This document shows positions 2,270 to 28,383 of a stretch of DNA of 64,000 nucleotides, one piece after another; positions within the stretch are counted from its first letter, which is position 1, and the number at the start of each line of letters is the position of its first letter. Where the stretch lies: IMG/VR virus record IMGVR_UViG_3300013132_000024. One strand, written 5' to 3'. The stretch comes from an uncultured virus (IMG/VR IMGVR_UViG_3300013132_000024). Its lineage: Duplodnaviria > Heunggongvirae > Uroviricota > Caudoviricetes. A model generated the notes under the pieces. It was not told where the DNA came from and made no database searches. It saw only the letters and a list, made by a program, of their open reading frames with translations. The translations under genes and the position numbers were made by a program.

Positions 2270-2923
2270 TTAGAATGTGGAAGTCGATTCAACTGCAATA
2301 AAATACTCCACATTAGGAGACTTCCACAAGGAAATACCCTTGGCTGATATAGTAACATTATATGTATCTGGAAGAAGCTTAATATTCTCTGGTTTAAATA
2401 TGGCAGAAAATTTCTTTTCTGTATTACCAATTTTTAAAGAATATACGTCTCCCGAAGGATTTTTTGTATCTAAAGCTTGTAAATAAATATGTTGTCCATC
2501 ACCATGAACAACTATTTCGGGCACATTAAGAACCGATAAAGCTTTTTCGACATTCTTCATTTCTTCGTTAGTAATTTCTAACTCTACTTCTTTAGAAGGA
2601 AGAATTAACTCTTTTTCTGGAGCCTTTGTAAGTAAAGCTTCTTCGGCATAAACATATTTAATGTTTTTATTTTCGTCAGAAATAGTCACATACTTGTCTT
2701 CAAAAGTTAATTCTGGATCATTAAACAACGATAACGAAGATAAGAATCTATCTAAACTGTAAATAGCAAAATCTTGTTCAAATGATACAGCTATAGCAGC
2801 TTTACCAACGATAGTTTTAATTGGTGATATTGTTCTAAGAACGTTGCCTTGTTTTATAAAAATAGAATTATTAATTTTAGAAAAATTCTTTAAAACAGCA
2901 ATAGTATTAGCATCAAGTTTCAT
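2270..2923 (-). CDS. gp45: DNA polymerase sliding clamp
   Basis: MKL...TIAVLKNFSKINNSI, FAIYSLDRFL, EYFIAVE; synteny. Confidence 0.95.
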   Translation of the reverse strand: MKLDANTIAVLKNFSKINNSIFIKQGNVLRTISPIKTIVGKAAIAVSFEQDFAIYSLDRFLSSLSLFNDPELTFEDKYVTISDENKNIKYVYAEEALLTKAPEKELILPSKEVELEITNEEMKNVEKALSVLNVPEIVVHGDGQHIYLQALDTKNPSGDVYSLKIGNTEKKFSAIFKPENIKLLPDTYNVTISAKGISLWKSPNVEYFIAVESTSTF

Positions 2924-2938
2924 TATATATAATCTCCA

Positions 2939-3184
2939 TTATTTTACACAGTTACATAAATTAGCAGATTGATTTTTCTTTACTAATTCCATTATTTCTT
3001 CACAAGATTCTAAACATGTTATAGTTTTACCCATTTTTAATACAACAACAGTAATTTCTGGTACTTCATCATCCGGTTGTATAATTGATGACTTTATTTT
3101 CTTTTTCCTTTCCATAACAACAATTTCGTTCACATCAACCCATAAATCATGAGTATCTAATGGATGCATTAATTTAATTAACAT
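2939..3184 (-). CDS. Hypothetical protein
   Basis: Tightly packed ORF in the operon; no motif recognised. Confidence 0.6.
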   Translation of the reverse strand: MLIKLMHPLDTHDLWVDVNEIVVMERKKKIKSSIIQPDDEVPEITVVVLKMGKTITCLESCEEIMELVKKNQSANLCNCVK

Positions 3185-3185
3185 A

Positions 3186-4031
3186 TTAACCCTTTCCGCC
3201 TAATTTATTAGGATCAGCAGTTGCTGCAACTCCTACAGCAGCTAAATCTGCTAAAGAACCACCAAAAATATATGTTCCGACGTGAGAAAGTCTCATCCAA
3301 GGACAAAACCAAGTTTTAAGTCCTATTTGTTGAGCTTTTTGACAAAACCAATAATCTTCAGATAAATATCTTTTAGTTACAGGATCTACTTCTGCTTGAA
3401 AAAACATCATAATTTCTCTAGAACCATCAAAATGTTTAGTTCTTACATGATCAGGTTTATAGAGGTAATTATTATACTTTTCTTGGAATTTGAGTAAAGC
3501 TTCTTTTTTAATCATCATAAAACCTGTACCAATTTCTAATACCTCTACAGGTTCTCCTATTGGTATTTGAGATTGTCCAGCTATAGGATTAAAAACATAA
3601 TCTCCAACAAATTTTTCTAAAACATTAGGGTCTTCATCCGCTACTCCACGATCTACTGCATGCTTAATTTTTTCCCAAGAAATACATTTCTTGGGATACG
3701 GTCCACCAATAATATCGTAAACAGGGTTTTGTATTTGAAGAGCCATTAAGGCTATAATATCTTGTGATTCAAACCCAATATCTGAATCAATGAACATTAA
3801 ATGCGTAGCATCTGATCTCATAAATTCATCACAACAATAATTTCTAGCTCTAGTAATTAATGATTCATTGAATAAGAAATATAACTGTAACGGAATTCCA
3901 TGTTTAGCACAAAATGCAGATAAATCTGAAATAGATTTAGTATAAATACCAGCACATTGACCACCATACATTGGTGTACATACCATAAGTTTTCGTTCTC
4001 TTAATTTTTCAATATCAATTTTTATCTCTAT
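3186..4031 (-). CDS. GT-A-like glycosyltransferase-family protein; probable start is ATA at 4031 (track start 3986)
   Basis: TPMYGG, NESLITRARN, THLMFIDSD (DxD), GTGFMMI, YLSEDYWFC, HVG; AAGGAG RBS 8 nt before an in-frame ATA. Confidence 0.7.
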   Translation of the reverse strand: MEIKIDIEKLRERKLMVCTPMYGGQCAGIYTKSISDLSAFCAKHGIPLQLYFLFNESLITRARNYCCDEFMRSDATHLMFIDSDIGFESQDIIALMALQIQNPVYDIIGGPYPKKCISWEKIKHAVDRGVADEDPNVLEKFVGDYVFNPIAGQSQIPIGEPVEVLEIGTGFMMIKKEALLKFQEKYNNYLYKPDHVRTKHFDGSREIMMFFQAEVDPVTKRYLSEDYWFCQKAQQIGLKTWFCPWMRLSHVGTYIFGGSLADLAAVGVAATADPNKLGGKG

Positions 4032-4079
4032 GATACTAACTCCTTTTTAATAAATTTACCAATTAAATATGTATAAGGC

Positions 4080-4397
4080 TTACCTTTTCTTAGTTCTTCC
4101 ACGTCTATTTTTATTTTCATTCACATTTTTCCCTTTATAATGATCGTTATATAAACACATTAATATATAATGCATAGCTTTCATAAGATCAGCTTTATTA
4201 GAGCCGTTCTTCTTTCCATATCGCCAAAGGTATTTTAATGCTGTATTTCTAAAGGTAGGTGTTGCATCATCTAAAGCAATCCAAGCATCAAAACATTCGA
4301 CTTTAGTTTCTTCTGTTTTGTAATGTTCATTGTATGTCGCCAGAACATAATTTTTAAAATCGTTTATTATTTCTTCTTCACAATATTTAGTATTCAT
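4080..4397 (-). CDS. DUF3310-like protein
   Basis: HY...ECFD...NTALKYLWRYGKKNG...DLMKAMHY pattern. Confidence 0.7.
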   Translation of the reverse strand: MNTKYCEEEIINDFKNYVLATYNEHYKTEETKVECFDAWIALDDATPTFRNTALKYLWRYGKKNGSNKADLMKAMHYILMCLYNDHYKGKNVNENKNRRGRTKKR

Positions 4398-4400
4398 ATT

Positions 4401-5186
4401 TTATCCAAAAAAGCTGTCTAATGTTGAACCAATTTTAGAAGATTTATCTTTTAATCTAAGTTCTGCATGACCAGTAGCAGGACGAATATACATAGTACAA
4501 TATTCTGGAAACATATCAGCTATTTGTTTGATAGATTTATCATTATATTCTTTATTTCGAACTGTTTGTAACCCACCAGGTTCTTTACGAAAATTTGTAT
4601 CTACTGTATAATTATCTAATCTACATAATACACCATTCTTAATATATTGTCTAATAGAATATTCATAATCTTCGCCATGATTTGTAATCCGTTCTAAAAA
4701 CGGATCATGTTGAATAATTATACCGCTAAACCAAGCTAAAATATAGCAAAGTTTAGTATATGTTCTATCTTTCATAAAATAGGCATTAGCCGCACCATAT
4801 AAACCAAATGTTTTTGCACCAACTCTATCACATTCAGAAAAACCTAATTGAATTAATTTCTCTAAATCATCAACTTTTCCAAGTTTTTGTTCTCCAACTT
4901 TAACTTGTATTTCGTTTAAATCATCATCAAAAGTCATCAAATATGTATTTTCAGGATAATATTTTTCGATAAAATTTCTGGTTGCTCCAATTGTTGGAAC
5001 ATTTGAATTTACAATATTATACTTTCCTTCTAATGATTTATTATATGAATCATATTCTTCAGAGTTAGATACAAATACTGTAATTTTATCTTTGTTTATA
5101 CCATATTCGTCTAAAAGTTTTAGTGTTTTTTTCTTAATTGTTTCTGACCTTTTATAACTAGGGACAGAAATGACATAATCTACCAT
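4401..5186 (-). CDS. TET/JBP-associated glycosyltransferase (TAGT/GREB1/JGT-like)
   Basis: ISVPSYKRS, RNFI, FDDD, EDYEYS, GGLQ motifs; directly downstream of the TET/JBP-like dioxygenase. Confidence 0.75.
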   Translation of the reverse strand: MVDYVISVPSYKRSETIKKKTLKLLDEYGINKDKITVFVSNSEEYDSYNKSLEGKYNIVNSNVPTIGATRNFIEKYYPENTYLMTFDDDLNEIQVKVGEQKLGKVDDLEKLIQLGFSECDRVGAKTFGLYGAANAYFMKDRTYTKLCYILAWFSGIIIQHDPFLERITNHGEDYEYSIRQYIKNGVLCRLDNYTVDTNFRKEPGGLQTVRNKEYNDKSIKQIADMFPEYCTMYIRPATGHAELRLKDKSSKIGSTLDSFFG

Positions 5187-5199
5187 TATAAAACCTTTC

Positions 5200-6495
5200 T
5201 TAAGCTAAAAAATCAGATAAATTAGACTGTTTTATGATTGGATATGGATTTTCTATATTATAATGTTTCATATAATTATACCATTCATCTTGATTCCACA
5301 TATCCGGAGATACTCCATTCCATCCTTTTCTCCATAATGTATGATTTTCATTTAATCTACGTTCTTCTACATATTGATGACGTAATGACTCATATTCCCA
5401 TGATTTTAATTCCATCATCTTTTCACGAAAATAAGCAACTACGGTCATTCGATCATTATTATCACCAATAAGAGCATCATTGCCATGTATACCGTCATGA
5501 TTGTTAACTAACAACATATCACCAGGTTGAATATTAATAGCTATACGATACTCTGGAAGAATAAATTCCCCGCCTTTCCATCCTTTACCTTCTGGTCCAG
5601 TAAGACCACATATATTTGAGAATCCTTCATGTAAATCACCTGCGTCTCTATGACACGCTGTTCTCCAGTTATGGTTTACAGTTAATGTAGTAAATACGGT
5701 TGAAGATATAAGAAATCTGTTATCTAGATAACTAGAAGATTTATGTTGCTTTCTCCAACGATTAGGCAAATGTTTCTTAAATTGTTCGTTCAATTTTTTC
5801 AAATATGGAAAACATAAAGAAAATTTCTCAAAATTTTTCTCAGTATAAGCTGTTGCTCTTCCGTATGGAATACGTGGATATCTATCAAAATATCCAGCAA
5901 TACCAGAAATTACAGGATTAGCATAATTGGTATCTGAAATATAATTATCAGAAACGTATTGAGCTTCTTTACGTTGTTCTTCTCTAGATAAATTATGTAA
6001 TCCATTTACCCATTTATCAAACCAACCATTATAATCTTCATAGCGTTCTAAGATTTTATTTCTTAACCAAACAAACCCACGAACTTCATCTTTCTTAATA
6101 CAAGAAAGATGATGATTACGAATATATTGTATAGATTGATCGTCAACAAGTATATTGTCTGGACGCAATAAAAAATCCAGAATATCGTGATGATATTCTG
6201 TTACCCAATCTCTATTTTGGAGTTTTTCATTACGAGGGCCAGCGGCTACACCTCTATTTTGAGATTCTATAGCCGCTCCGCGTAATCCTGCATAAGCAGA
6301 ATCACACTTTTCTTTAGTAAATATATTCTTACGATATTTAAAGATTATATTTGCTTCAGTAGTAGTTCCATCTATTGTTTCTGCATAAAGATCAGTATCA
6401 TCATTAATGATTTCGTCAGCATATTCAGCACAAGTAATATACTTACCTAATGTTTCTTCAGAATCAACTTTTTTCTTAACTAATATTCTTACCAT
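5200..6495 (-). CDS. TET/JBP-family 2OG-Fe(II) 5-methylpyrimidine dioxygenase
   Basis: SGIAGYFD; FTTLTVNHNWRTACHRDAGD (HxD); IHGN (distal His); RMTVVAYFRE (2OG-binding Arg). Confidence 0.8.
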   Translation of the reverse strand: MVRILVKKKVDSEETLGKYITCAEYADEIINDDTDLYAETIDGTTTEANIIFKYRKNIFTKEKCDSAYAGLRGAAIESQNRGVAAGPRNEKLQNRDWVTEYHHDILDFLLRPDNILVDDQSIQYIRNHHLSCIKKDEVRGFVWLRNKILERYEDYNGWFDKWVNGLHNLSREEQRKEAQYVSDNYISDTNYANPVISGIAGYFDRYPRIPYGRATAYTEKNFEKFSLCFPYLKKLNEQFKKHLPNRWRKQHKSSSYLDNRFLISSTVFTTLTVNHNWRTACHRDAGDLHEGFSNICGLTGPEGKGWKGGEFILPEYRIAINIQPGDMLLVNNHDGIHGNDALIGDNNDRMTVVAYFREKMMELKSWEYESLRHQYVEERRLNENHTLWRKGWNGVSPDMWNQDEWYNYMKHYNIENPYPIIKQSNLSDFLA

Positions 6496-6916
6496 TTAAT
6501 ACTCTCTCAATATCTGCTGGTTTATAATTTGGTCTTTTTAGAACCTTACCATCTTCACGATATATTGGGTTACCATCTTCACCTAGTTTGCTCATATTTG
6601 AATAATGAACTTCTCTATATACATCATCAATAGGAATACCATAAGCAGCCGCAGTACCATATACTACATAAAGTAAATCTGCAAGTTCTTTGGCTAATTT
6701 TGGTAAATTTATAGAATAAGAATAATCACATATTACAGGACCACTAGCCTGAAAATAACCCATTTCCTCCATAACTTCTTTATATTCTTCAACAATCAAT
6801 TTTACTCTTAGATTTCTTATATCTTTAGATTGTTCTGTTGGTACTTCTGGATCTTTTACTTTATTAAATGCTTGATGGAATTCTTTCACTAACTCAAAAT
6901 TTGTTTTCATAGCCAC
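6476..6916 (-). CDS. MazG-like NTP pyrophosphohydrolase (PRA-PH-like)
   Basis: VKEFH, LIVEEYKE, KELADLLYVVYG, EVHYSNMSK, REDGKVLK. Confidence 0.88.
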   Translation of the reverse strand: MAMKTNFELVKEFHQAFNKVKDPEVPTEQSKDIRNLRVKLIVEEYKEVMEEMGYFQASGPVICDYSYSINLPKLAKELADLLYVVYGTAAAYGIPIDDVYREVHYSNMSKLGEDGNPIYREDGKVLKRPNYKPADIERVLNGKNIS

Positions 6917-7422
6917 TCCGGGGGATTTCTATTAGTCCAACGATGTAAATCTTTTTTACCTAATCTGTAATAGTTTCTATAACTATTTATCACAGAATTT
7001 GGATCTTTATACTCGTCAGGCATGCATTTTGGCATTTCTGTCATATCAAAATCGCATAAATTCTTAGGTGGGCTTTGTAAGATATAACCCATAGAAAAAC
7101 ATTTATGTTTCTTATTATATCTATGAGTATATTCGTTACATAAGGCGAAAAAATGGTCAACTAACCAATTATAATTTTCTACAGCTGTTCTAGTCCATAT
7201 AGCTGATGGATGATTGATATGTGTTGCTTTATACATTATAGGTTCACGTTCATCATATAATGTATATACTGTTTTATTATTTACTTTTGTTTTAGTACCA
7301 TCTAGTATTCTGTGTGCAGTAGAAAGAAGTTGAGCAGATTCCAATATCATTTTTACTACATGTTTATCTACCATCCATTGTGCTGCTTGTACAGGATTTT
7401 CATCAATATAAAATATGTTCAT
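6907..7422 (-). CDS. Pyrimidine-dimer DNA glycosylase / endonuclease V-like protein
   Basis: MNIFYID...DKHVVKMILESAQLLSTAH, YKATHINHPSAIW, YRNYY. Confidence 0.75.
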   Translation of the reverse strand: MNIFYIDENPVQAAQWMVDKHVVKMILESAQLLSTAHRILDGTKTKVNNKTVYTLYDEREPIMYKATHINHPSAIWTRTAVENYNWLVDHFFALCNEYTHRYNKKHKCFSMGYILQSPPKNLCDFDMTEMPKCMPDEYKDPNSVINSYRNYYRLGKKDLHRWTNRNPPEWL

Positions 7423-7423
7423 T

Positions 7424-7684
7424 TTAATCCTCCATTACAGAAAAATTCATACCAGATAAAATAATTGGTATCATAAACAATTCACTGCCAACGGTTACTT
7501 TTAATCCTACTTGACCGGAATATAAATCTACAAACCCATATATTTCAGTATTCTCATCTGCTATAGATGTTTTTAAAAATTCTCTTATTTCTGAAGCTAA
7601 AATATATGATTTATTATCATAACCATGTTTGTTTATAAATTCGCCTATTCTAGCAAATGCTATATCTGATTCATTATTATTCAT
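7424..7684 (-). CDS. Hypothetical protein
   Basis: Packed ORF with ATGA overlap with def. Confidence 0.55.
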   Translation of the reverse strand: MNNNESDIAFARIGEFINKHGYDNKSYILASEIREFLKTSIADENTEIYGFVDLYSGQVGLKVTVGSELFMIPIILSGMNFSVMED

Positions 7685-8160
7685 TTTTTCTTTAACTTTT
7701 TCAACGCCATATCTAATTTTAATTTTGAAACAAGATCTGTAAAAACTTTACCTTGAAGGTGATCATACTCGTGTTGAAATATGCGAGCAGATAGTCCTGT
7801 AAATTTTTTGGTTAAAATGTCACCATTAGGTGTATTAAATCTCACACGAATATGTTGTGGTCTTTTTATTTTTAATAAAAGACCAGAAAAAGATAAACAT
7901 CCTTCTTCTAATTCTATTAGAGAATTAGATGACCAAACCACTACAGGATTAAAACAAACAAAATTTTCTGGTGCTCCTCTCATAGCAAATATAGAGTACG
8001 GAACACCAACTTGATTCGCCGCCAACCCCAAACCGCCTTTATCATACATATATTTTACTATATCCTTGGAAAAGAGTATAGGGTCAAAAGGCGGCGAAAG
8101 AAAATTAAATTTTTCTGTTGGCGTTCTTAATATAGGATCATTTTTATCGACTAAGTTCAT
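7681..8160 (-). CDS. def: Peptide deformylase
   Basis: GLGLAANQVG, EGCLS, QHEYDHLQG. Confidence 0.96.
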   Translation of the reverse strand: MNLVDKNDPILRTPTEKFNFLSPPFDPILFSKDIVKYMYDKGGLGLAANQVGVPYSIFAMRGAPENFVCFNPVVVWSSNSLIELEEGCLSFSGLLLKIKRPQHIRVRFNTPNGDILTKKFTGLSARIFQHEYDHLQGKVFTDLVSKLKLDMALKKLKKK

Positions 8161-8161
8161 A

Positions 8162-8842
8162 TTATTTCATCGCATATATTAAGCTTGTCCAAGCCTTTAA
8201 AGTTGGCGGAGGGGCAATAACAGTACTAAAATTTGCTTTAAGATAACTTGTTATGTATTTGAATTTACTTTGATCTTTATCGTTAAGGTGGGATTGATGC
8301 CATTCCATCATAATAGTATCTGCCGAAGACCAGTCTATATCGTTATTAAGGAATATATCATATTCCGCGCCTTCAATATCTAATTTGATTTTATTAGGCT
8401 TGATTCGATTAACTTCTTCGGAAAATCTTTTAGCATTAACGGTAACAGCAGTTCTTCCTCTTTTTTCGATAAGAGAATGCATACCTTTGTTTTTTAAATT
8501 GTTTACATAAAAAGAAACATTAGGAACATTATTTGATATTAGAGCATAATTATATATTGTAACATTATTACAATTATTATGTTGTAAATTTTTACTAGCT
8601 AATTCAAAATTGTCTTTATCTGGTTCATAAGAATGAACTTCTTTTACTAATTTAGATACTCTTGTTGAATATCCACCTATATTAGCACCTACATCTAAAA
8701 CAATATCTGTTGGTTTATAACTGAAAAACTTTTTGAAATATGTTGTACCATAACATTCATCAATCACAAGTTGATCAGAAGTTCCTTGTCTTACATAAAA
8801 AGATTCTGATATGTTTTTTTTATTATATATTTCTAATTTCAT
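8162..8842 (-). CDS. FkbM-family SAM methyltransferase (likely start MKLEIY at 8842)
   Basis: VLDVGANIG, YEP, IKLDIEGAEY; GGAG RBS upstream of 8842. Confidence 0.85.
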   Translation of the reverse strand: MKLEIYNKKNISESFYVRQGTSDQLVIDECYGTTYFKKFFSYKPTDIVLDVGANIGGYSTRVSKLVKEVHSYEPDKDNFELASKNLQHNNCNNVTIYNYALISNNVPNVSFYVNNLKNKGMHSLIEKRGRTAVTVNAKRFSEEVNRIKPNKIKLDIEGAEYDIFLNNDIDWSSADTIMMEWHQSHLNDKDQSKFKYITSYLKANFSTVIAPPPTLKAWTSLIYAMK

Positions 8843-8856
8843 CTTTTCTCCATATT

Positions 8857-9132
8857 TTATCTTCCACACGCTTCATGTATAGCAGACATATAATCTACTG
8901 GTTCAAGTTTAATTAACTCGCTAGGCAATTCTAATTCTTCGCTTGTTAATGTATGATATAATTCGTTTATTAAAATTTTATGTAATTCAAAACTTGGATC
9001 TAATCCTACTAATTGATTACAATCTGTTTCTAATTCTTTTATTTCTTCAAGAGTCATCTTACCTAAAATAACCAATATTGCTCCTAGTTGAGAACTCTCT
9101 AATGATTTAATTTTATCACGTAAATATCTCAT
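8857..9132 (-). CDS. Hypothetical protein
   Basis: ORF with a GAGGA RBS; no motif recognised. Confidence 0.55.
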   Translation of the reverse strand: MRYLRDKIKSLESSQLGAILVILGKMTLEEIKELETDCNQLVGLDPSFELHKILINELYHTLTSEELELPSELIKLEPVDYMSAIHEACGR

Positions 9133-9188
9133 TTATTATTCAATCCTCTAGTATAACCATTATCTATATATTTTTGTAACAAATAGTG

Positions 9189-9968
9189 TCAGATTCGAGC
9201 TGCCTGAATCTGCATCCAATCATAATTTCTAGATCTACCTAAACTTAACCAACCTTCTTCTTCCCATATATCCCAAAATCTAGCACAATCTGATTTAGCT
9301 AATCTAGCTCTATCTCTTCCCCACTTTAATTGGTTTCTATCAGGATCAAAATCAATAGCAATACCCCATGAATGCATTGACCAAGCAGAACCACCGCGCA
9401 TCTTACGTACATTTAAACTACCACCAAATAAATCTAATCCCAATTTTCTACGAACATCAGCATCAGGATATGCATCAGCTATACGAGCAAAACAACGCTT
9501 TGCTGAATCGTGTACCTTTTCGTGTACTGATATTCTTCTAATTACTTTATCCGTATCCCAAGCTAATACCATTGGAAATGGTAATACTAACATTGTTTGA
9601 TTTTCACCAACTTTGCCGTAATATTTAGATACTCCAGATTGTGTAGGCCAAGCGTTCTTTTTAGCTTCCTGAAAATCTTTATCTTTCCAAGTTTCTACTT
9701 CTTTAACTTTCTCAGGATCTCCAGATTGTTTAGCTTCCCATACTTCTCTAGCATGTCTAGTTTGAGGGCCAACTAAACCATCTACTGTTCCTGCATTTAT
9801 TTTATTTGTCGAATAGATTGCTTGTTCGGCAGCTACAAGTAATCTATCTTTATTCCATGAAGCGGTTTTAAGCTTAGGATAAGCTCTTTTTAGATAAGAT
9901 TTTATTGCTTCTAATAAATCGTCTGTTGCCGATATTTTTAAAAATTGTTGAATTTCAGATACTTCCAT
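9189..9968 (-). CDS. Endolysin: peptidoglycan-binding segment plus M15 (L-Ala-D-Glu-type) peptidase
   Basis: VDGLVGPQT (PG-binding); R...SMHSWGIAIDF (SxHx6D); DWMQIQ. The usual distal His reads as Q here. Confidence 0.8.
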   Translation of the reverse strand: MEVSEIQQFLKISATDDLLEAIKSYLKRAYPKLKTASWNKDRLLVAAEQAIYSTNKINAGTVDGLVGPQTRHAREVWEAKQSGDPEKVKEVETWKDKDFQEAKKNAWPTQSGVSKYYGKVGENQTMLVLPFPMVLAWDTDKVIRRISVHEKVHDSAKRCFARIADAYPDADVRRKLGLDLFGGSLNVRKMRGGSAWSMHSWGIAIDFDPDRNQLKWGRDRARLAKSDCARFWDIWEEEGWLSLGRSRNYDWMQIQAARI

Positions 9969-9989: not shown

Positions 9990-10010
9990 TAATAAAAATT
10001 GGAGTTTATT

Positions 10011-10586
10011 GTGTTTTGCACTTATTTAACAATTTATAGAGGAAATAAACTTCCTCCGTTTTATATAGGTTCTTGTAAATTAAGCAAGATAGAAAAAGGT
10101 TATCACGGTTCTGTTTCTTCTAAAATGTATAGTAAAATTTGGAATAAAGAACATAAAGAAAATCCAAATTTATTTATTACCAAAATTTTAACATATCATA
10201 AAATTGATACAGAAGCTAGAGAAAAAGAATTATATTTTCATATTTCTTTAAATGTTGTTAAATCTCCTATGTATATCAATATGTCTAGCGCTCGTAAAAA
10301 TGGATTTTTTGGTATGAATGTTTCTGGTTCTAATAATCCTATGTATGGTAAAAGCAGAAAAGAAAATCACCCTAAAGGTATGTTAGGCAAACATCATTCT
10401 ACTAAAACTAAACAATATATGTCTAAAATAAGAAAAGGCAAACAAACCGGTTCTAATAATCCTATGTACGGTAGAAAATGGACGTCTGAAACAAGATCTA
10501 TTATTCTATCTAAAAGAATAGGTGTTAAACGAGGTCCATATAAAACTAAGACTAAGAAATTCGTGAAAAATTCTGAACTTTCTTAA
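10011..10586 (+). mobile_element. Free-standing GIY-YIG (Seg-like) homing endonuclease with NUMOD3-type repeats
   Basis: CTYLTIY...FYIGS, YHGS; two GSNNPMYG repeats and GKHHSTKTK. Antisense to its neighbours; overlaps the gp46 3' end. Confidence 0.85.
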
Positions 10587-14273: not shown

Positions 14274-15176
14274 TTATATTCTTAGTTGTACTTTATAGTT
14301 TTTGTATACAAATTTCTCTTCATTATATATTTTTATTCTTTCCATAAAATGTGTCAAAGTAGTATTCTTCTTTTCTCTCCAAGTTAAATCATCAGAAATA
14401 TCGTATAATGTTGATACCATATTCTTCGTAGATAATCTTAATAATCTACCAATAGATTGTAAAGTATTAACTCTAGCTTTTGAAGGGGAAGCAAATATAG
14501 CATTATGTAATTCAGGAATATTCGTTCCAGTTGACATAGTTCCTTCTGATGCTATTGTAATAGATTTTTTATGTGAATTAATTTTTAATCTTATTTCTTC
14601 TCTAGTATTACCATCTACTTTACCATGTATATAATATACTGGACAATCTGGATTAGCACTCTTTATAAGATTATATAATTTATCTCCATGTTTCTCAATA
14701 TATCTGAAAAGAACTATGGTATTTCCTTCTAATGATAATGCTAAATTAGCTATAAATTGATTTCTCTTGTCACAGTCAAAAAGAAAATTTCTTTCGTCTT
14801 CGTACTTTAATTTAGAAACCATTTTTCTTACATCATCAGGATACGATAAAACTATATTTTTAATTTTAAAATCAGCAGCATATTTCTGTTCAATCATTTC
14901 ATGAGTTGTTATAATTTTTTCTACTTTACCGAATAGTCCTTCTAGAACTAATTTATTAGTTTGAGAACCATCTAAAGTACCAGTAGTACCATATCTATAT
15001 TCAGTAGTTTTTAATTTTTCCATTATAGAAATTAGAGATTTTGCTTTAAACTTATGCGCTTCGTCTCCAATAACAACCTCAATATCTTTAAAGAAATTTT
15101 CTGGTTGTTGATATATAGATTGCCATGTTGTACAAATTAACTTTGGTATTTTGTGTTCGATTTTAATTATTTTCAT
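14274..15176 (-). CDS. uvsW: UvsW SF2 helicase, C-terminal part (split gene)
   Basis: TTWQS, DEAH, GTTGT, QSIGRLLR, YDISDD; preceded by 9 extra residues MKIIKIEHK. Confidence 0.92.
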   Translation of the reverse strand: MKIIKIEHKIPKLICTTWQSIYQQPENFFKDIEVVIGDEAHKFKAKSLISIMEKLKTTEYRYGTTGTLDGSQTNKLVLEGLFGKVEKIITTHEMIEQKYAADFKIKNIVLSYPDDVRKMVSKLKYEDERNFLFDCDKRNQFIANLALSLEGNTIVLFRYIEKHGDKLYNLIKSANPDCPVYYIHGKVDGNTREEIRLKINSHKKSITIASEGTMSTGTNIPELHNAIFASPSKARVNTLQSIGRLLRLSTKNMVSTLYDISDDLTWREKKNTTLTHFMERIKIYNEEKFVYKNYKVQLRI

Positions 15177-15315
15177 TTGTTTCTTTCTTTAAAATCAAAT
15201 TCGCCATTTTTCCTTTTTTGGTATTCTACCAGAAAGAATATAGTTAAAAATAGATATAGACCAATTGTTTAGATTACAATTTTTTTAACTGGCAAATTAG
15301 GCAAATCAATCCATG

Positions 15316-15460
15316 TTATTCCGTATTTGAACCGTTTAAAGATCTAGATATTATATGATGTTTTTCAGAATATTGTTCTAAAGATATAGGATTTTTTATT
15401 CTATTGATTATAATATTTCTATATCATTTAAAATACTTATTGGTTATAATATTTGTGTAA
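15316..15460 (-). pseudogene. Decayed HNH homing endonuclease (Mob-like) remnant
   Basis: Manual translation: DGYTNIITNKYFK*YRNIIINRIKNPISLEQYSEKHHIISRSLNGSNTE*; TGA at 15424-26 sits where Trp is expected. Confidence 0.75.
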
Positions 15461-16165
15461 CCATCTATCGTCAATTTCGTCATTAATAGTAATATCCTTT
15501 GCTTTCTTATATAAAATATCACTGTTTAGTATTTTTATATTTACATTGCCGTCAAATATATATTCTTTGCCTAAATCTGAAATTATATGTACTTTTAATG
15601 GTTCTTTTTCTTGTCCAGCGTATATTTTATACATATTATTAGTATCTTCGTATCCATAAGATATGAAATCAGAGTACATTTGATGTATAAGGTTTAAATT
15701 CGGAACAACTAACAAAGTTCTTTTATTTAGATATCTGTAAATAAGGTATATAATCAAAGATTTACCAGAAGCCGTTGGAGATAAAAGAAGCTTTCTTTTA
15801 TCTCTTATAGAGTGTATAAAAGCTTTTAACTGATAATCTCTAGGTTCAAACGGAAGATTTAGTGAATTTATAAATTGTTTAGCTTCTTTTACAGAAAATT
15901 CATTAGCAGAAATATCTGTAATATACGAAATATCATACTTTTTTTCTTGTGCAAATTCTTCTATATACGGCAGCAAGCCCGCATATACTAAGTTTGTTAA
16001 AGGATTAAAAAGGTAGATATCTCCATTCCATTTTTTATTTTTATAAGCAGGAGTAAATTGATATCCAGGAACTTTAAATGTAAAACGATCTTTTAATTCA
16101 TACAAAATATGAGGTTCAGCATATACTTTAATATGTACTTCGTTTATTTTTTCTATATTTAACAT
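15437..16165 (-). CDS. uvsW: UvsW helicase, N-terminal part (split gene) with a 54-aa non-helicase C-terminal tail
   Basis: FTFKVPGYQF, PRDYQ, SPTASGKS (Walker A), LLVVP, KIYAGQEK. Confidence 0.92.
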   Translation of the reverse strand: MLNIEKINEVHIKVYAEPHILYELKDRFTFKVPGYQFTPAYKNKKWNGDIYLFNPLTNLVYAGLLPYIEEFAQEKKYDISYITDISANEFSVKEAKQFINSLNLPFEPRDYQLKAFIHSIRDKRKLLLSPTASGKSLIIYLIYRYLNKRTLLVVPNLNLIHQMYSDFISYGYEDTNNMYKIYAGQEKEPLKVHIISDLGKEYIFDGNVNIKILNSDILYKKAKDITINDEIDDRWLHKYYNQ

Positions 16166-17176: not shown

Positions 17177-18009
17177 TAATAGACTACTTTCGGTTTATTT
17201 ACTATTGTATATTTATTAATTAAAGGATGTATAGTTTCTTCTACTTTCTTTTTATTTTCTGGTGTTAATTTATCATACCAATCCGGTATAGTTCGTTCTT
17301 CTGAATCTAAACCATGATCAGAAATTATTGCTAATTTATCTCTAAAATTATTATTTCTATAATGATATAATCTATGTCTTATTGGCAATTCAGTATAACT
17401 TCCTGTTTGAGAAATAGATTTATTGTTTCTTAAAAATATTCTTTCTATTTCATGTCTTTTTTGTGCAGTAAAAGCAGATAATTCTCTCTTAGAATTATAA
17501 TATCCTGTTGGATCTGATTGATCGTCGTATTCTGGATCTTGTTCAATGGCTTTGCCATGATAATCTACTAAATGTTGAAACTCATGTCTAAACGCACCAT
17601 AATGATTGTTTAATGAATCTAAAAATTTTCTATGTGTTACTTCAATATGATCGTTAGGATCAGGTTCATGTATTCTATTTAATAATATAAAATGTTGTCT
17701 GTTTTTTACTATATCTCTTTTAGAATTTGGTGTTTGTCTATATTCTGCTTCATTAACACTATCAGTTTTTCCTAAAAATATGCTAGATTTACTATATTTT
17801 CTTTTTAAACTTTTGTTTATAGGAAGATCTTGTATACGAACACCAAAGTGATTGTAATCAAAATTGTTAATTTTTCCTGTTTTTAAAAGCCTCTTAAAAT
17901 TATCAGGATCTCTTAAATGTTGTTTAAGACCCATCCAAATTAATTTAGAATCAGTATCATGTATACTATTATTATTATATTTAATTTGTTCTAATATTTT
18001 ACGAAACAT
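17176..18009 (-). CDS. Putative internal head protein with a zincin-like HExxH motif
   Basis: N-terminus MFRKILE; RHEFQHLVD...YYNSKRELSA. Confidence 0.55.
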   Translation of the reverse strand: MFRKILEQIKYNNNSIHDTDSKLIWMGLKQHLRDPDNFKRLLKTGKINNFDYNHFGVRIQDLPINKSLKRKYSKSSIFLGKTDSVNEAEYRQTPNSKRDIVKNRQHFILLNRIHEPDPNDHIEVTHRKFLDSLNNHYGAFRHEFQHLVDYHGKAIEQDPEYDDQSDPTGYYNSKRELSAFTAQKRHEIERIFLRNNKSISQTGSYTELPIRHRLYHYRNNNFRDKLAIISDHGLDSEERTIPDWYDKLTPENKKKVEETIHPLINKYTIVNKPKVVY

Positions 18010-19057
18010 ATCTAGCAGCTAATCTTATTTCTTTATGACCTAAATGTTTTTCTATAGGATCTTTATTGGATATAGAAAAATATTTATTTGTTCTACCATC
18101 ATAACCATCTACAATAATATTTGGTTTTCTTCTTAATTCGTCCCAAGTTTTAATTTCTTGTGGAGATAATGACCCTGAATGTAAATGTAATTTTTGTTTA
18201 GTTGTTAAATGATGGTAGAAATCAGCATTAGACATATTAGAACCAACAGTAGAGCCTGAAGATTTTATCATAAAAGTTTTTCTTGGTCCATGTTCTCCAA
18301 TTACCCATGATCTAATAGATTCTTCATTAGGAAGGTGAACAGTATATTCTCCTTCTTTTTCTTTCGTTGTTTTTTTATATTTAATTGTTCTGTATTTATC
18401 ACTATAAACAACTTTTCTTGATAAAATTTGTTTAGTTCCAATTAATAATTTAGATTTTTGTTTTGTTTTTTTTGTTGCTTCTGTTATGTTACCATATTTT
18501 TCCGGTTTTAAATGTTTCCATAATGCTAAAGATTCTGTTATTTCTTCTTTTTTCTTTACAGAAAATCTACTACTTTTATTCATATATGTATCTAAATTCG
18601 TATTAGGAGGGATATCTTGATATTCTCTTTTAGCCATATCGTATACTTGCATATGAATATCAGGCATACTTTTTAATCTGTCATATACTTTAAATGCGCC
18701 TTTAGATAACGCATAATCTGAATGCCAATGTATTCCATGATTTGTTACTAAATGATGTATAAATTCATGTGCTGGCAACTTATTTCCAAATCCATTCATA
18801 TTATCAACATAAAATTTGTTGTCTCTAGTAATATTACCATATACTCCTAAAGAAATATGATCGTTAGGCTCATGTAAAGCAAAATGTACACCAGGACTGT
18901 TTCTATGATAATATCTAGATACTTTATGATTACCAATATTTGAAATATATTCTCTAGTAGGTTTTTTTGGTTCTTCTTTATATGGTGTTAAATCTTTTTC
19001 TTTATCTACATCATTATAAAAAGGGGCTTCTTTTAAATATTGTTTAAACTTTTTCAT
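17999..19057 (-). CDS. Putative internal head protein with two tandem related domains
   Basis: MKKFKQYLKE leader; internal ITE sites; duplicated F.HHL...H.HS..LS....K..D.L...P.I....YD. Confidence 0.6.
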   Translation of the reverse strand: MKKFKQYLKEAPFYNDVDKEKDLTPYKEEPKKPTREYISNIGNHKVSRYYHRNSPGVHFALHEPNDHISLGVYGNITRDNKFYVDNMNGFGNKLPAHEFIHHLVTNHGIHWHSDYALSKGAFKVYDRLKSMPDIHMQVYDMAKREYQDIPPNTNLDTYMNKSSRFSVKKKEEITESLALWKHLKPEKYGNITEATKKTKQKSKLLIGTKQILSRKVVYSDKYRTIKYKKTTKEKEGEYTVHLPNEESIRSWVIGEHGPRKTFMIKSSGSTVGSNMSNADFYHHLTTKQKLHLHSGSLSPQEIKTWDELRRKPNIIVDGYDGRTNKYFSISNKDPIEKHLGHKEIRLAARYVS

Positions 19058-25398: not shown

Positions 25399-25606
25399 TT
25401 TCTTCCTCTGATTCTGGTTGATCTTCTGTTTCAAAATCTTCTGTATCTATATCGGAATCACCAGAAAACATAGTTCTAGCCAAATCAGATTTTCTATTAT
25501 CTATAGCAGTACTTATTTTATCTAACAATATATTTTTTAAATGATCACCAAAATCTGAAGGCTTTTGTTCTAAAGATGTCGATAATAAATCTTTAATATC
25601 ACTCAT
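25391..25606 (-). CDS. gp67: Prohead core protein gp67-like
   Basis: Small protein with an acidic tail directly downstream of the portal. Confidence 0.65.
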   Translation of the reverse strand: MSDIKDLLSTSLEQKPSDFGDHLKNILLDKISTAIDNRKSDLARTMFSGDSDIDTEDFETEDQPESEEENV

Positions 25607-28383
25607 TATTGTCTACTCCATTGTTTTCTATTTTTAGAATCAGAAACACCTATTGCTGATAATAAATCTTTATTTTTAGCAACTATTTGAACTGCTGCTT
25701 TATATTTAGATTCATCAGTCATAGATCTATTACCTTTTTTACGTTTCATTTGATCTATAGTTACTTGAGCTTGTCTAAGTTGTTCTAATTTTTTTCTCAT
25801 TTCGTCACCACCAGGGCCATTTCCTTGATGTGTAGTATCTGAATGCATATCTTGTGGATTTGGTTGGGCATCACTAGTACCGTCATCAACCAATTGTTGT
25901 GGTTGTTGCATTAATTGGTTGTTTTGTTCAATCATTGGATTAAACCATCTAGGTTCATTAGATTCCATTTCCATCATAATATTTTCATCTCTTTCTTCAA
26001 TATCCTCATCACTTTGTCTTAGAACATTTTTTCTAATCCATCTATGATCGTAATATTTACCAGCCATATCTTGGAAATTACGAGCAAGATTAACTCTAGC
26101 TTCAGCTATTTCAGCGTCTTTTAATTCTGTGAAATAATTATCTCTAGCATAATTGTATTTTATTTGTTGTGCTAATAATTCCCAATCTTCAGGAGTAACT
26201 ATTTGTTTTAAAATTAATTGTTTTTCTAACATTTTTGTGAATAATTCAGAAAAACGTGATCTTAATCTTACTACAAATCTAGCAAATTTTAATTCATCTC
26301 TAGTAATTTCTGTAGCTCTACCTATAGAAAATAAAGCATCGGAGCTTAATCTAGAAACAGGAACGTTTAAACATTGTAAAAATTTCTTTTGAAAATATAA
26401 AACGTCGTCTAATTGTCCTAATGTTTCACCAGCAGGTAATGTTGTAACTTCAGTTCCTCTGCCACCTTCTTTTCTTGGAAGCCAATAATCTTCCAACATT
26501 GTATTTTTTGTATAAACGCCGGCATCAAGTAAATATGTATGATTACTATGATATGTTTCATCTAAATCAATAGTTAAACAACCTACATCCATAGTTTCTT
26601 CTAACCATTCTACAGAAATAGCTTTATGATTTATAAGTTGTTCTGCAAAATATTTTTTAGATCCGAATTTTCCTTTAATATTTGTTCTATTTAAATTATT
26701 ATTTCTACAAAATTCGCTTAAATTTTCTAATATAATTTCTTCACTTGTTGGTATTTTAATTTTCCATGTTTTACATTTTGGTATACGATTTTTAGCAGCA
26801 ATACTTAATTTAGCTCTCCATTCTAGAGTAAAATCTTCTGATTTATTAATTTTATTACCAAATCCATATTTTGCGCAATCCCAATGATAATTCATATGAT
26901 CATTTCTGTTCATACGAACTAAATTATCTGGTGAATTGTTATATTTATTAAAATCTTTATGATGTATTGTGTTTTTTATGGAATTAGCGTATTTTTCGTT
27001 GTGTATCATTTCTTCACGAATATTATTATTATCTTTCCATTCTGCTACTTCTCTATGAGTAAATTCCCAAGTTTTAGTATCGTTTTTATAAATTTGTTCA
27101 TAAAGTTTATTAGAATATAATTCTTTTTGTTTTCTATATCCTGGAATGATAGATTCTCCAATCAAATGTTGAGCTTCTATCATTCCTTTACCCCAAACAG
27201 GAAATTTATGATCTGGTGTACATATTATTGTTTTACCATTATCTAATGTAACTTTTACAACTTGTGCTTTTTTCTTAGTTATACCTGCCCAAGATATTGG
27301 ACCAGGTACAAATTTTCCAGTAATGGGATCACAAGAATAAACCCAATTTTTCTTTCCAGATTCATATTCTTTTTGAATTTCAAATAAAGTTAACGTTCTA
27401 CCATCAAGCAATGGTATTTTAGTTGTCATATCTAAGCACATAAATTTACGATCATCTCTGATTTCACCAGTAGTTGCGTCATATATCAATCTATTTTTAT
27501 GTTTTACCATAATTTCGCGAATATATTGTTCCGCTTTCATTTTTGGCAAATTACCAACGTCAATATACCATACTCTTCTTTCTGGTGCTCTTGCTAATCT
27601 ATAAATTACTAACGCATCTTCCAGAGTTCTTAATTGATTTAATGCCTTAATTGCTTTATGCAAATAAGACAATACCATTGTTTGGTTATTATCTGTAAAT
27701 CCAGAAACTACATGTAATATAGAATCTTTGGTAATTTTTAATCCTGTAGTTGAAGGTCCAACGTTTTTATTACCAAAATTAAATCCTCTATCACTAAAAA
27801 CGAAATATTCGTTAACAGTTTTAGATACATTTACATCGCCTAAAGCGTTTAATCCCATGTTATTAGGAAGTTTTTTTCTTTGTATTTCTTTAACTTTTCT
27901 AATTTTTCTTGGATCAATATATCTTAATTCTTTAATACCCATTTGAGGGTTTTTTTCGTCAATTACAACATGATAATATAACCTTCCATCTATATACCAA
28001 CGTCTGTATATATCATATGCTTTTGTATTAAATTCTAATAATCTTAAACAAGTATTAAATTCTTCTCTAATAACCTTTTTAACATTATCAGGAATTTGTA
28101 TATTATTTAAATTAATATCTACAATTACATCTTCATCTATAGATATGGATTCGTTTATTATTTCATCCACAGCAGAATCTACTTCGGGATGAAGGGACAT
28201 TTCTCTATATTTTGTAACTAATTCAGCTTCTGTTCTTACTGTACCTTCTAAATCTACATAAGTACCATAAGCACCACCAGCTGCAACTAATAGTGCTCCA
28301 TCATCTTCTTCTTTGTTAACAAAAGATGGAGCACTATTAGATTCTTGTTCTGCTTTTTTAAACTCAAAACCGAATAATTTCAT
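25606..28383 (-). CDS. gp20: Portal protein, intein-containing
   Basis: RRWYIDGRLYY, EDALVIYRLARAPERR, IDVGNLPK, MLEDYWLPR, EITRDELKF. Confidence 0.98.
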   Translation of the reverse strand: MKLFGFEFKKAEQESNSAPSFVNKEEDDGALLVAAGGAYGTYVDLEGTVRTEAELVTKYREMSLHPEVDSAVDEIINESISIDEDVIVDINLNNIQIPDNVKKVIREEFNTCLRLLEFNTKAYDIYRRWYIDGRLYYHVVIDEKNPQMGIKELRYIDPRKIRKVKEIQRKKLPNNMGLNALGDVNVSKTVNEYFVFSDRGFNFGNKNVGPSTTGLKITKDSILHVVSGFTDNNQTMVLSYLHKAIKALNQLRTLEDALVIYRLARAPERRVWYIDVGNLPKMKAEQYIREIMVKHKNRLIYDATTGEIRDDRKFMCLDMTTKIPLLDGRTLTLFEIQKEYESGKKNWVYSCDPITGKFVPGPISWAGITKKKAQVVKVTLDNGKTIICTPDHKFPVWGKGMIEAQHLIGESIIPGYRKQKELYSNKLYEQIYKNDTKTWEFTHREVAEWKDNNNIREEMIHNEKYANSIKNTIHHKDFNKYNNSPDNLVRMNRNDHMNYHWDCAKYGFGNKINKSEDFTLEWRAKLSIAAKNRIPKCKTWKIKIPTSEEIILENLSEFCRNNNLNRTNIKGKFGSKKYFAEQLINHKAISVEWLEETMDVGCLTIDLDETYHSNHTYLLDAGVYTKNTMLEDYWLPRKEGGRGTEVTTLPAGETLGQLDDVLYFQKKFLQCLNVPVSRLSSDALFSIGRATEITRDELKFARFVVRLRSRFSELFTKMLEKQLILKQIVTPEDWELLAQQIKYNYARDNYFTELKDAEIAEARVNLARNFQDMAGKYYDHRWIRKNVLRQSDEDIEERDENIMMEMESNEPRWFNPMIEQNNQLMQQPQQLVDDGTSDAQPNPQDMHSDTTHQGNGPGGDEMRKKLEQLRQAQVTIDQMKRKKGNRSMTDESKYKAAVQIVAKNKDLLSAIGVSDSKNRKQWSRQ
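26503..27438 (-). mobile_element. Intein (312 aa) with an HNH endonuclease, in the portal
   Basis: RDDRKFM|CLDMTTKI...CTPDHKF...IHHKDFNKYNNSPDNL...H...GVYTKN|TMLEDYW. Confidence 0.93.

Follow-up and report, generated by a model that had tools for sequence, protein, structure and literature searches.

Phage enzymes of the TET/JBP (5mYOX) superfamily are known to act on thymine: members of phage clades C1 and C2 oxidize it in DNA, C1 enzymes mostly need a ParB partner, and a C5-methyltransferase accompanies just 6% of 5mYOX pathways (O'Toole 2026, PMC13229309). The chemistry up to 5-hydroxymethyluracil (5hmU) is known, and clusters of TET_JBP, kinase (5-HMUDK) and AADT genes were described in 2021, when conversion of thymine to 5hmU was already inferred for such contigs (Lee 2021, PMC8989533). 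Here we analyze a locus of an uncultured virus (IMG/VR IMGVR_UViG_3300013132_000024) in which a long-insert Tet_JBP dioxygenase, hereafter the oxidase, is directly followed by a TET-associated glycosyltransferase (TAGT). The window, the whole 64,000-nucleotide stretch analyzed, comprises positions 62001-126000 of a linear virus record of 129,988 bases that is 75% complete; the genome is that of a T4-like phage with a G+C content of about 30% and with gp23, gp20, gp17, gp45, gp46/47 and gp55, and the locus is covered by contigs from two lake-water runs that differ in no letter, each run being a possible source of the record. We regard it as fairly probable, judging from sequence comparisons, that the two enzymes turn some thymines of the phage's own DNA into a sugar-capped, base J-like hydroxymethyluracil, with both tethered to the gp45 sliding clamp.

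The oxidase and its target base

The oxidase is a member of the TET/JBP superfamily. It matches Pfam PF12851 (Tet_JBP) at 7.8e-17 (61 bits against a cut-off of 34.9), and its iron triad (H282-x-D284 and H337) and 2-oxoglutarate-binding R349 are invariant among 140 aligned sequences. The fold model built from that alignment has a pLDDT of 90.8, replacing an earlier one from 9 sequences (pLDDT 67.8), and superposes on TET2 with a Z of 20.9 and a root-mean-square deviation of 3.2 over 252 residues; TET2, CMD1, NgTET1 and CcTet are its top structural matches (Z 18-21), the next standing at Z 13.9. The catalytic residues are intact, the model has the TET fold, and 96 columns are invariant across 42 long members of the family. 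Behind R357 the protein continues for 74 residues, compared with 20-27 in short C1 enzymes and 8-9 in C2, and so has a C-terminal extension of the C1 type. Its variable insert gave no informative match in the Atlas. The five minus-strand open reading frames (ORFs) named in a preliminary description of this DNA are all present, as are the motifs quoted there for the 431-aa protein. The homologs in DLP6 (L001:7001-8347), Cr30 (L002:7001-8329) and S-CBWM1 (L004:3729-5165) are labelled 'SNF2 DNA repair protein'.

Which base does this enzyme oxidize? For comparison, reference enzymes were taken from IMG/VR (the 5mYOX98, 99 and 173 contigs by identifier, and one protein that, by eye, has the sequence of 5mYOX176), and phage Melnitz, which has the polymerase, C5-methyltransferase, TET order of Burke clade B, served with 71 related loci as a proxy for enzymes of the 5-methylcytosine (5mC) type. 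From the core without the insert, a quick maximum-likelihood tree was computed for 50 proteins, using 39 of 66 dereplicated sequences and 11 Melnitz-like ones as root; four of five long-branch rows were left out, and clade A lay outside the sample. In this tree the oxidase groups with C1 and C2 and is separated from the Melnitz-like clade by a branch with 100% SH-aLRT support, no particular C1 subgroup being supported, while C2, including the 5mYOX98 and 99 contigs, forms its own long-branched clade with 100% support and leaves the oxidase outside. Core identity is 38-41% to C1 (39% to the 5mYOX176-identical protein), 33-35% to C2 and 21-24% to the Melnitz-like clade, and the nearest tested enzymes are those of phage clade C1.

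The preliminary description saw no C5-methyltransferase in the window, and none was found in the whole 130-kb, 75%-complete record: PF00145 was found neither there nor in five complete relatives (DLP6, Cr30, C48C1, S-CBWM1 and one 100%-complete metagenomic relative) nor in four partial ones, with Melnitz as a positive control, and a C5-methyltransferase profile matched 0 of 99 long-form loci compared with 65 of the 71 used to build it. The oxidase thus has neither the methyltransferase within a few genes nor the clade sequence that distinguish the 5mC dioxygenases of clades A and B. Because it groups with C1 and C2, because no C5-methyltransferase occurs in the record, relatives or loci, and because 37 of 58 closed relative slots hold a P-loop kinase and an AADT, enzymes with known activity on 5hmU DNA (Lee 2021, PMC8989533), thymine is likely; we hold with good confidence that it is the target base. 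The preliminary suggestion of a TET/JBP oxygenase and TAGT acting on DNA, probably at thymine, is upheld by this agreement of clade, missing methyltransferase and relatives' cassettes; the premise from which it started, that phage TETs usually act on 5mC, is out of date in view of the phage thymine dioxygenases and the rarity of C5-methyltransferases in their pathways (O'Toole 2026). ThyX is present in the genome and no ThyA-family enzyme was found in it. A pre-replicative route was considered and rejected: no ThyA-family gene appeared in the phage's own record, G001, DLP6 or S-CBWM1, and Cr30 gave one strong match.

C-terminal tails and the sliding clamp

An L-x-x-F-[FL] end occurs on exactly three of the genome's 180 ORFs, those for the DNA polymerase (ISTLEDFFS), the TAGT (STLDSFFG) and the oxidase (SNLSDFLA), where shuffles expect 0.39; the motif was defined after the tails had been seen, and the enrichment is descriptive. 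The oxidase family is common: a profile scan matched 516 viral contigs, and the family has cultured members. The best 80 of these contigs were kept, a sample that leans to close kin; with further loci added, and two copies of the phage's own genome and two duplicate loci removed, the relative set comprised 84 loci with 73 distinct sequences. The tail motif ends 76 of 84 oxidases, 14 of 16 TAGTs, 15 of 45 AADTs and 9 of 10 c26 proteins; elsewhere it is found on 0 of 45 proteins of the gene at position 3186, 1 of 68 MazG-like proteins, 0 of 56 DUF3310-like proteins, 0 of 65 short C1 enzymes and 0 of 7 C2 enzymes. The cultured phage DLP6 carries both tailed enzymes.

Why would modification enzymes end like a polymerase? 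The C-termini of gp43, gp55 and gp33 bind gp45 in T4 and RB69 (PMC2988020), and T4 alpha-glucosyltransferase co-purifies with gp45 (PMC13216743). Both tails described here have the hydrophobic, acidic extreme C-terminus of a gp45 ligand and share it with the phage's own polymerase. When the gp45 trimer was modelled together with the last 36 residues, the score was 0.45 against 0.02 for the best control, a weak signal that may echo the solved RB69 complex; the runs had 65% or more of their contacts in common, the partner pLDDT was at least 46, and in the benchmark for such models passes at or below 0.60 amounted to 18 of 157 solved complexes and 2 of 215 mismatches. The tail would mark modifiers linked to the T4-like replisome.

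ParB, in turn, was found neither in the phage's own record nor in the five complete relatives, and in 0 of 99 long-form loci, compared with 60 of 64 short C1 loci, from which the ParB profile was built. The oxidase therefore lacks the adjacent ParB of the ParB-dependent C1 subclass; it also lies outside the 5mYOX89-like clade and has a C-terminal extension, which separates it from the ParB-independent C2 subclass. We hypothesize that the clamp tail replaces the ParB activator. Long-insert oxidases at seven further loci (L148, L150, L152, L161, L164, L167 and L173), likewise without ParB, have a conserved (G)xLDI end instead of LxxFF, possibly a docking motif for another clamp.

The sugar step and the neighboring genes

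The second gene encodes a TAGT of the JGT-like GT-A type. Its product matches PF20691 at 2.6e-11 (44 bits against a cut-off of 27.5) and phrog_842 at 1.3e-16, and R13, DDD87-89 and D173 are invariant, E172 nearly so, among 19 sequences, giving the R...DDD...EDY/F motif of phage DNA glycosyltransferases and JGT (Pyle, bioRxiv 10.1101/2023.12.21.572611); the TAGT profile found no match among sequences of the Protein Data Bank (PDB). The family includes first-sugar enzymes and the second-sugar enzyme of T2/T6 (Pyle; PMC13216743), and members transfer hexose (Hex), N-acetylhexosamine (HexNAc) or hexuronic acid (HexA) (Pyle). Relatives keep a fixed order of deformylase, Pyr_excise-like, MazG-like, oxidase, variable cassette, DUF3310-like, 3186 gene and gp45. 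Among 58 closed loci the variable slot holds AADT and P-loop kinase in 37 (with an amidotransferase in 20 of these), a TAGT alone in 14, and a BGT-like with a HAD-like gene in 7, the BGT-like label of that cassette (c34) having been given by eye, with no Pfam or NCBIfam match. Several tailoring cassettes, the TAGT among them, replace one another at this position; 14 cassette changes were counted, without a shuffle control, on a FastTree of 79 proteins. Since a TAGT alone fills the slot in 14 loci, the simplest reading is that it would add one sugar to 5hmU.

As to the sugar, the closest TAGTs of cultured phages, from the Acadian and Prairie clusters, are 27-35% identical and stand with a deacetylase, and the DLP6 and S-CBWM1 cassettes also contain nucleotidyltransferase and HAD genes. 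Neither deacetylase nor nucleotidyltransferase nor HAD gene is found in the slot of this phage, and no deacetylase in its genome, so that a host nucleotide sugar is the likely donor; the sugar itself is most likely a hexose or HexNAc in beta linkage, drawn from the pool of the host. That the product is true base J (beta-glucosyl-hmU) is a distinct possibility, though not the likelier outcome. A heptose donor was considered and rejected: the genome contains a heptose-pathway-like cluster (SIS, HAD, GHMP kinase, GT1), but its kinase occurs in two glycosyltransferase-type relatives and also in an AADT-type one, is absent from the TAGT-bearing DLP6, and is not tied to the TAGT. It belongs to a sugar-pathway island of the phage's own genome (G000:C1:45490-52851; L019:7490-14851, plus strand), likewise not tied to the TAGT, with two TylF-like methyltransferases, a NanM-like O-methyltransferase, a cytidylyltransferase, an SIS isomerase, a HAD phosphatase, a transaldolase, a GT1 and the GHMP (heptose) kinase. 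DLP6 gp28 and S-CBWM1 gp9 are TAGTs that lack annotation as such; the paper on DLP6 names an 18-enzyme digest.

How far does the pathway extend? The preliminary description spoke of one operon, with which inter-ORF gaps of -20 to 56 bases over 2270-9968 are compatible; promoter-like sites are at or below chance (45 found, 52 expected). It placed the MazG-like and DUF3310-like genes in that operon and suggested for the former a part in cleaning the nucleotide pool; membership of these two genes in the pathway is not supported: they flank every type of cassette, sugar-free ones included, and each is found in many oxidase-less phages. Of the 76 loci that extend upstream of the oxidase, 74 have a MazG-like gene, of either of two families, at most two ORFs before it, and phage records gave 9 matches to the oxidase compared with 65 to the 3186 protein, 452 to the DUF3310-like protein (mostly in cyanophages) and 483 to the MazG-like protein. 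The pathway likely consists of two genes only, those for the Tet_JBP dioxygenase and the TAGT. The MazG-like protein is likely the phage's dUTPase: DR2231, which it matches over its full length, is called a dUTP-specific hydrolase in the title of a cited reference, and in phiM12 a dUTPase gene lies behind regA, at the position of the MazG-like gene in DLP6 and Cr30. At L025:324-689 and six more loci another MazG-like family, recognized by eye and with no Pfam match, takes the place of the DR2231-type gene. A Pyr_excise (DenV-like) gene (6907-7422, minus strand) lies upstream of the oxidase in 66 examined loci.

The 3186 protein, called a second glycosyltransferase in the preliminary description, has no Pfam, NCBIfam or PDB-sequence match. 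Its GT-A identity is weakly supported by DSD and EDY motifs, by one Atlas cluster in which Anp1 is given for 32% of members, and by a weak Anp1 match of the DLP6 homolog (E 0.003). The gene likely starts at an ATA (4029-4031, minus strand) 8 bases behind AAGGAG and 45 bases upstream of the ATG at 3986; homologs have ATG in its place and begin MEI(K/N)I, and the ATA is likely real because the contigs of two runs give no other letter.

Table 1. Features of the oxidase-TAGT locus, with positions in the window
Feature	Position	Strand	Basis or remark
gp45 sliding clamp, on which both tails are predicted to dock	2270..2923	-	gp45 C-terminal domain (Pfam); RB69/T4 gp45 structures E 6.6e-18
Putative GT-A protein (3186 gene; phrog_1574), flanking gene not tied to the oxidase	3186..4031	-	Probable ATA start
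DUF3310-like protein, conserved flanking gene upstream of gp45	4080..4397	-	Pfam 1.1e-4 (22.6 bits, just below the cut-off of 24); phrog_480
TAGT (GT-A), 261 aa, with a predicted role in glycosylating 5hmU in DNA	4401..5186	-	PF20691
TAGT C-terminal tail GSTLDSFFG, predicted clamp-binding peptide	4404..4430	-	Polymerase ends ISTLEDFFS
Fe(II)/2-oxoglutarate 5-methylpyrimidine dioxygenase (Tet_JBP) of the long-insert form, 431 aa, predicted to hydroxylate thymine	5200..6495	-	PF12851
Dioxygenase C-terminal tail KQSNLSDFLA, predicted gp45 clamp-binding peptide	5203..5232	-	Like the polymerase tail
Variable insert of the dioxygenase, 107 residues (87-193)	5917..6237	-	Alignment; 26-54 residues in the short relatives shown
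MazG-like all-alpha pyrophosphatase, DR2231 type, likely dUTPase, flanking gene	6476..6916	-	PRA-PH/MazG 3.3e-14; DR2231 structures E 2.7e-18, residues 4-140
FkbM-family methyltransferase, possible accessory	8162..8869	-	TIGR01444 1.2e-24; four genes upstream of the oxidase; no tail

Further features stand apart from the locus. The 925-aa portal protein gp20 (25606-28383, minus strand) contains an intein-like segment (PF14890, 2.8e-07, below cut-off), the UvsW helicase is split over two ORFs (14274-16165, minus strand), and a NUMOD3-bearing probable homing endonuclease gene (9999-10586, plus strand) lies on the opposite strand between endolysin and gp46. The phage's own genome (G000:C1) also encodes a glutathionylspermidine synthase (27249-28376), a SET-domain protein (17669-18043) and a class II (B12) ribonucleotide reductase (3776-5674).

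Alternatives, mechanism and relation to known systems

Several observations weigh against a clamp-tethered route to glycosylated 5hmU. The tested thymine dioxygenases 5mYOX97 and 176 oxidize 5mC and T about equally well in vitro (PMC13229309), 5-hydroxymethylcytosine (hmC) transferases use the same GT-A motif as the TAGT (Pyle), kinase and AADT genes also occur in C5-methyltransferase/TET clusters and are not thymine-exclusive (Burke 2021, PMC8256090), a P-loop kinase adjoins the methyltransferase-linked Melnitz enzyme too (a weak match), and the record leaves a quarter of the genome out of view. The oxidase might accordingly work on 5mC whose methyltransferase belongs to the host or is encoded in that unseen quarter, the TAGT then making glycosyl-hmC; we judge this unlikely, given five complete relatives and 99 loci with no C5-methyltransferase found, the distance of the oxidase from the methyltransferase-linked clade, a TAGT profile that matched none of the Melnitz-like loci, and GC dinucleotides that are not depleted (1.08). 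Depletion of CG, CTC, GTC, TCGA and ACGT was also seen, with no control, and is set aside. The tail does not help here: it is found on methyltransferase-linked oxidases as well (Melnitz-like, L198-L268; 42 of 62 by the strict motif, 61 by a loose one, and 0 of 60 of their methyltransferases) and so says nothing on the base. With regard to the clamp, gp55 of this phage lineage does not end in the motif (0 of 31), and neither tail nor ParB is present in Cr30, in S-CBWM1 or in 13 of the 17 more distant long forms. C1 members lacking ParB showed no activity in E. coli, and several with it gave less than 5% (PMC13229309), and the available 5mYOX entries of O'Toole Dataset S11 include no long-insert enzyme. 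The oxidase could instead be a thymine hydroxylase that needs an activator other than gp45, such as a remote ParB-like protein or a host factor, or one of little activity, its tail serving for loading or being a relic. We assign this a low probability: the five complete relatives yielded no ParB, an insert swap can abolish ParB dependence (PMC13229309), and the invariant columns of the long members, together with the conserved tail, speak against decay.

The sugar might also be built differently. The TAGT of T2/T6 attaches a second glucose (PMC13216743), which counts against a first-sugar role here; clusters with two glycosyltransferases yield di- and trisaccharides on hmC (Pyle, bioRxiv 10.1101/2023.12.21.572611), and the 3186 protein, with its DxD and EDY motifs, is encoded 370 bases from the TAGT. 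The preliminary description had accordingly cast it as a chain extender, and one may picture both proteins building a disaccharide on hmU, with the TAGT extending as in T2/T6. We find this quite improbable, as the 3186 gene persists next to AADT-kinase cassettes and also in two phages for which no oxidase match was obtained, phiM12 (between gp46 and gp45) and ACG-2014f, the tail is missing from all copies of its product, and the 3186 and TAGT profiles do not match each other (probability 0.6%); with flanking genes kept beside every cassette and in oxidase-less phages, the two-sugar idea is unsupported. Very improbable, finally, is a part for the FkbM methyltransferase in methylating 5hmU or the sugar, which would give a methylated final base: related FkbM genes do stand immediately behind the oxidase in HTVC112P-like loci and in L029 and L088, and ahead of the TAGT in L124, but the gene here stands four genes upstream, outside the slot, has a homolog in just 2 of 84 relative loci, is only 29-36% identical to the FkbM genes directly after related oxidases, and has no tail.

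On the reading we prefer, thymine oxidation followed by a single sugar transfer at the clamp, dTMP from ThyX, fed by the DR2231-type pyrophosphatase, would be the ordinary supply, and the polymerase would incorporate plain T. The clamp-docked oxidase would then hydroxylate a subset of the thymines in new DNA to 5hmU, chosen probably by sequence context as in tested relatives (PMC13229309), and the TAGT would cap the hydroxyl with one sugar, giving a base J-like glycosyl-hmU. The polymerase-type LxxF[FL] tails are predicted to dock both enzymes on gp45, so that they follow the replisome, and tether and long insert may together stand in for the ParB activator of the short C1 enzymes. The purpose is likely protection from host nucleases, as in other hypermodified phages. 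The full combination, in which a T4-like lineage makes true base J on the replisome with both enzymes on gp45 and the clamp replacing ParB, is doubtful.

If this is correct, two genes would be a minimal set for making base J, or an analogue of it, outside eukaryotes, and the locus would explain solitary TAGTs, which occur in 288 of 753 genomes (PMC13216743); if the clamp can replace ParB, the job of ParB would be to hold the oxidase on DNA. A literature search that covered few subscription papers found no paper on glycosyl-hmU from an oxidase-TAGT pair and none on clamp coupling of phage thymine dioxygenases, the relevant paper mentioning clamps, in its available parts, only for ParB/KorB. The pairing of oxidase and TAGT was reportedly predicted by Iyer et al. 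in 2013.

The closest described enzymes, the phage thymine dioxygenases of clades C1 and C2 (PMC13229309), share with the oxidase the Tet_JBP fold, the catalytic residues and the missing C5-methyltransferase, as well as the C1-type C-terminal extension, and their GATase, kinase and AADT neighbors recur beside relatives of the oxidase. They have about 290-330 residues compared with 431 here, and the 107-residue insert, the absence of ParB, the polymerase-type tail and the T4-like genome distinguish our case; that study ends at 5hmU, no glycosyltransferase being tested in its available parts. The cassette of the TET_JBP, 5-HMUDK and AADT clusters (Lee 2021, PMC8989533) is the one seen in 37 of 58 closed relative slots, with kinase and AADT where this phage has a single TAGT. 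In the cytosine pathway of C5-methyltransferase, 5mYOX and glycosyltransferase (Burke, PMC8256090; Pyle), post-replicative oxidation, a GT-A enzyme, T4-like hosts of the genes and, on Melnitz-like oxidases, a similar tail recur; it has a C5-methyltransferase, none having been found here, and its oxidases form a separate clade at the low core identity given above. The actinophage clusters of ParB, TET, TAGT and deacetylase (Acadian gp1-4, Prairie gp62-66) likewise place the TAGT directly behind the Tet_JBP gene, and add a PIG-L deacetylase, which suggests N-acetylglucosamine (GlcNAc) and which this genome lacks, and in Prairie an annotated ParB.

T4 offers the precedent for linking a DNA modifier to the clamp through a short, hydrophobic, acidic end, in its alpha-glucosyltransferase with gp45 and in the C-termini of gp43, gp55 and gp33 (PMC13216743, PMC2988020); T4 makes hmC before replication, whereas here both post-replicative steps carry the tail, and in T4 gp45 binding is not the main determinant of the glucosylation share (PMC13216743). 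The base J pathway of JBP1/2 and JGT, compared by its description in the available literature, shares the predicted two-step logic of a hydroxylase followed by an R...DDD...EDY GT-A enzyme. JBP proteins carry J-binding and SWI2/SNF2 domains, neither of which is seen in the oxidase, and where base J is a transcription mark, the modification made by this phage likely serves in defense.

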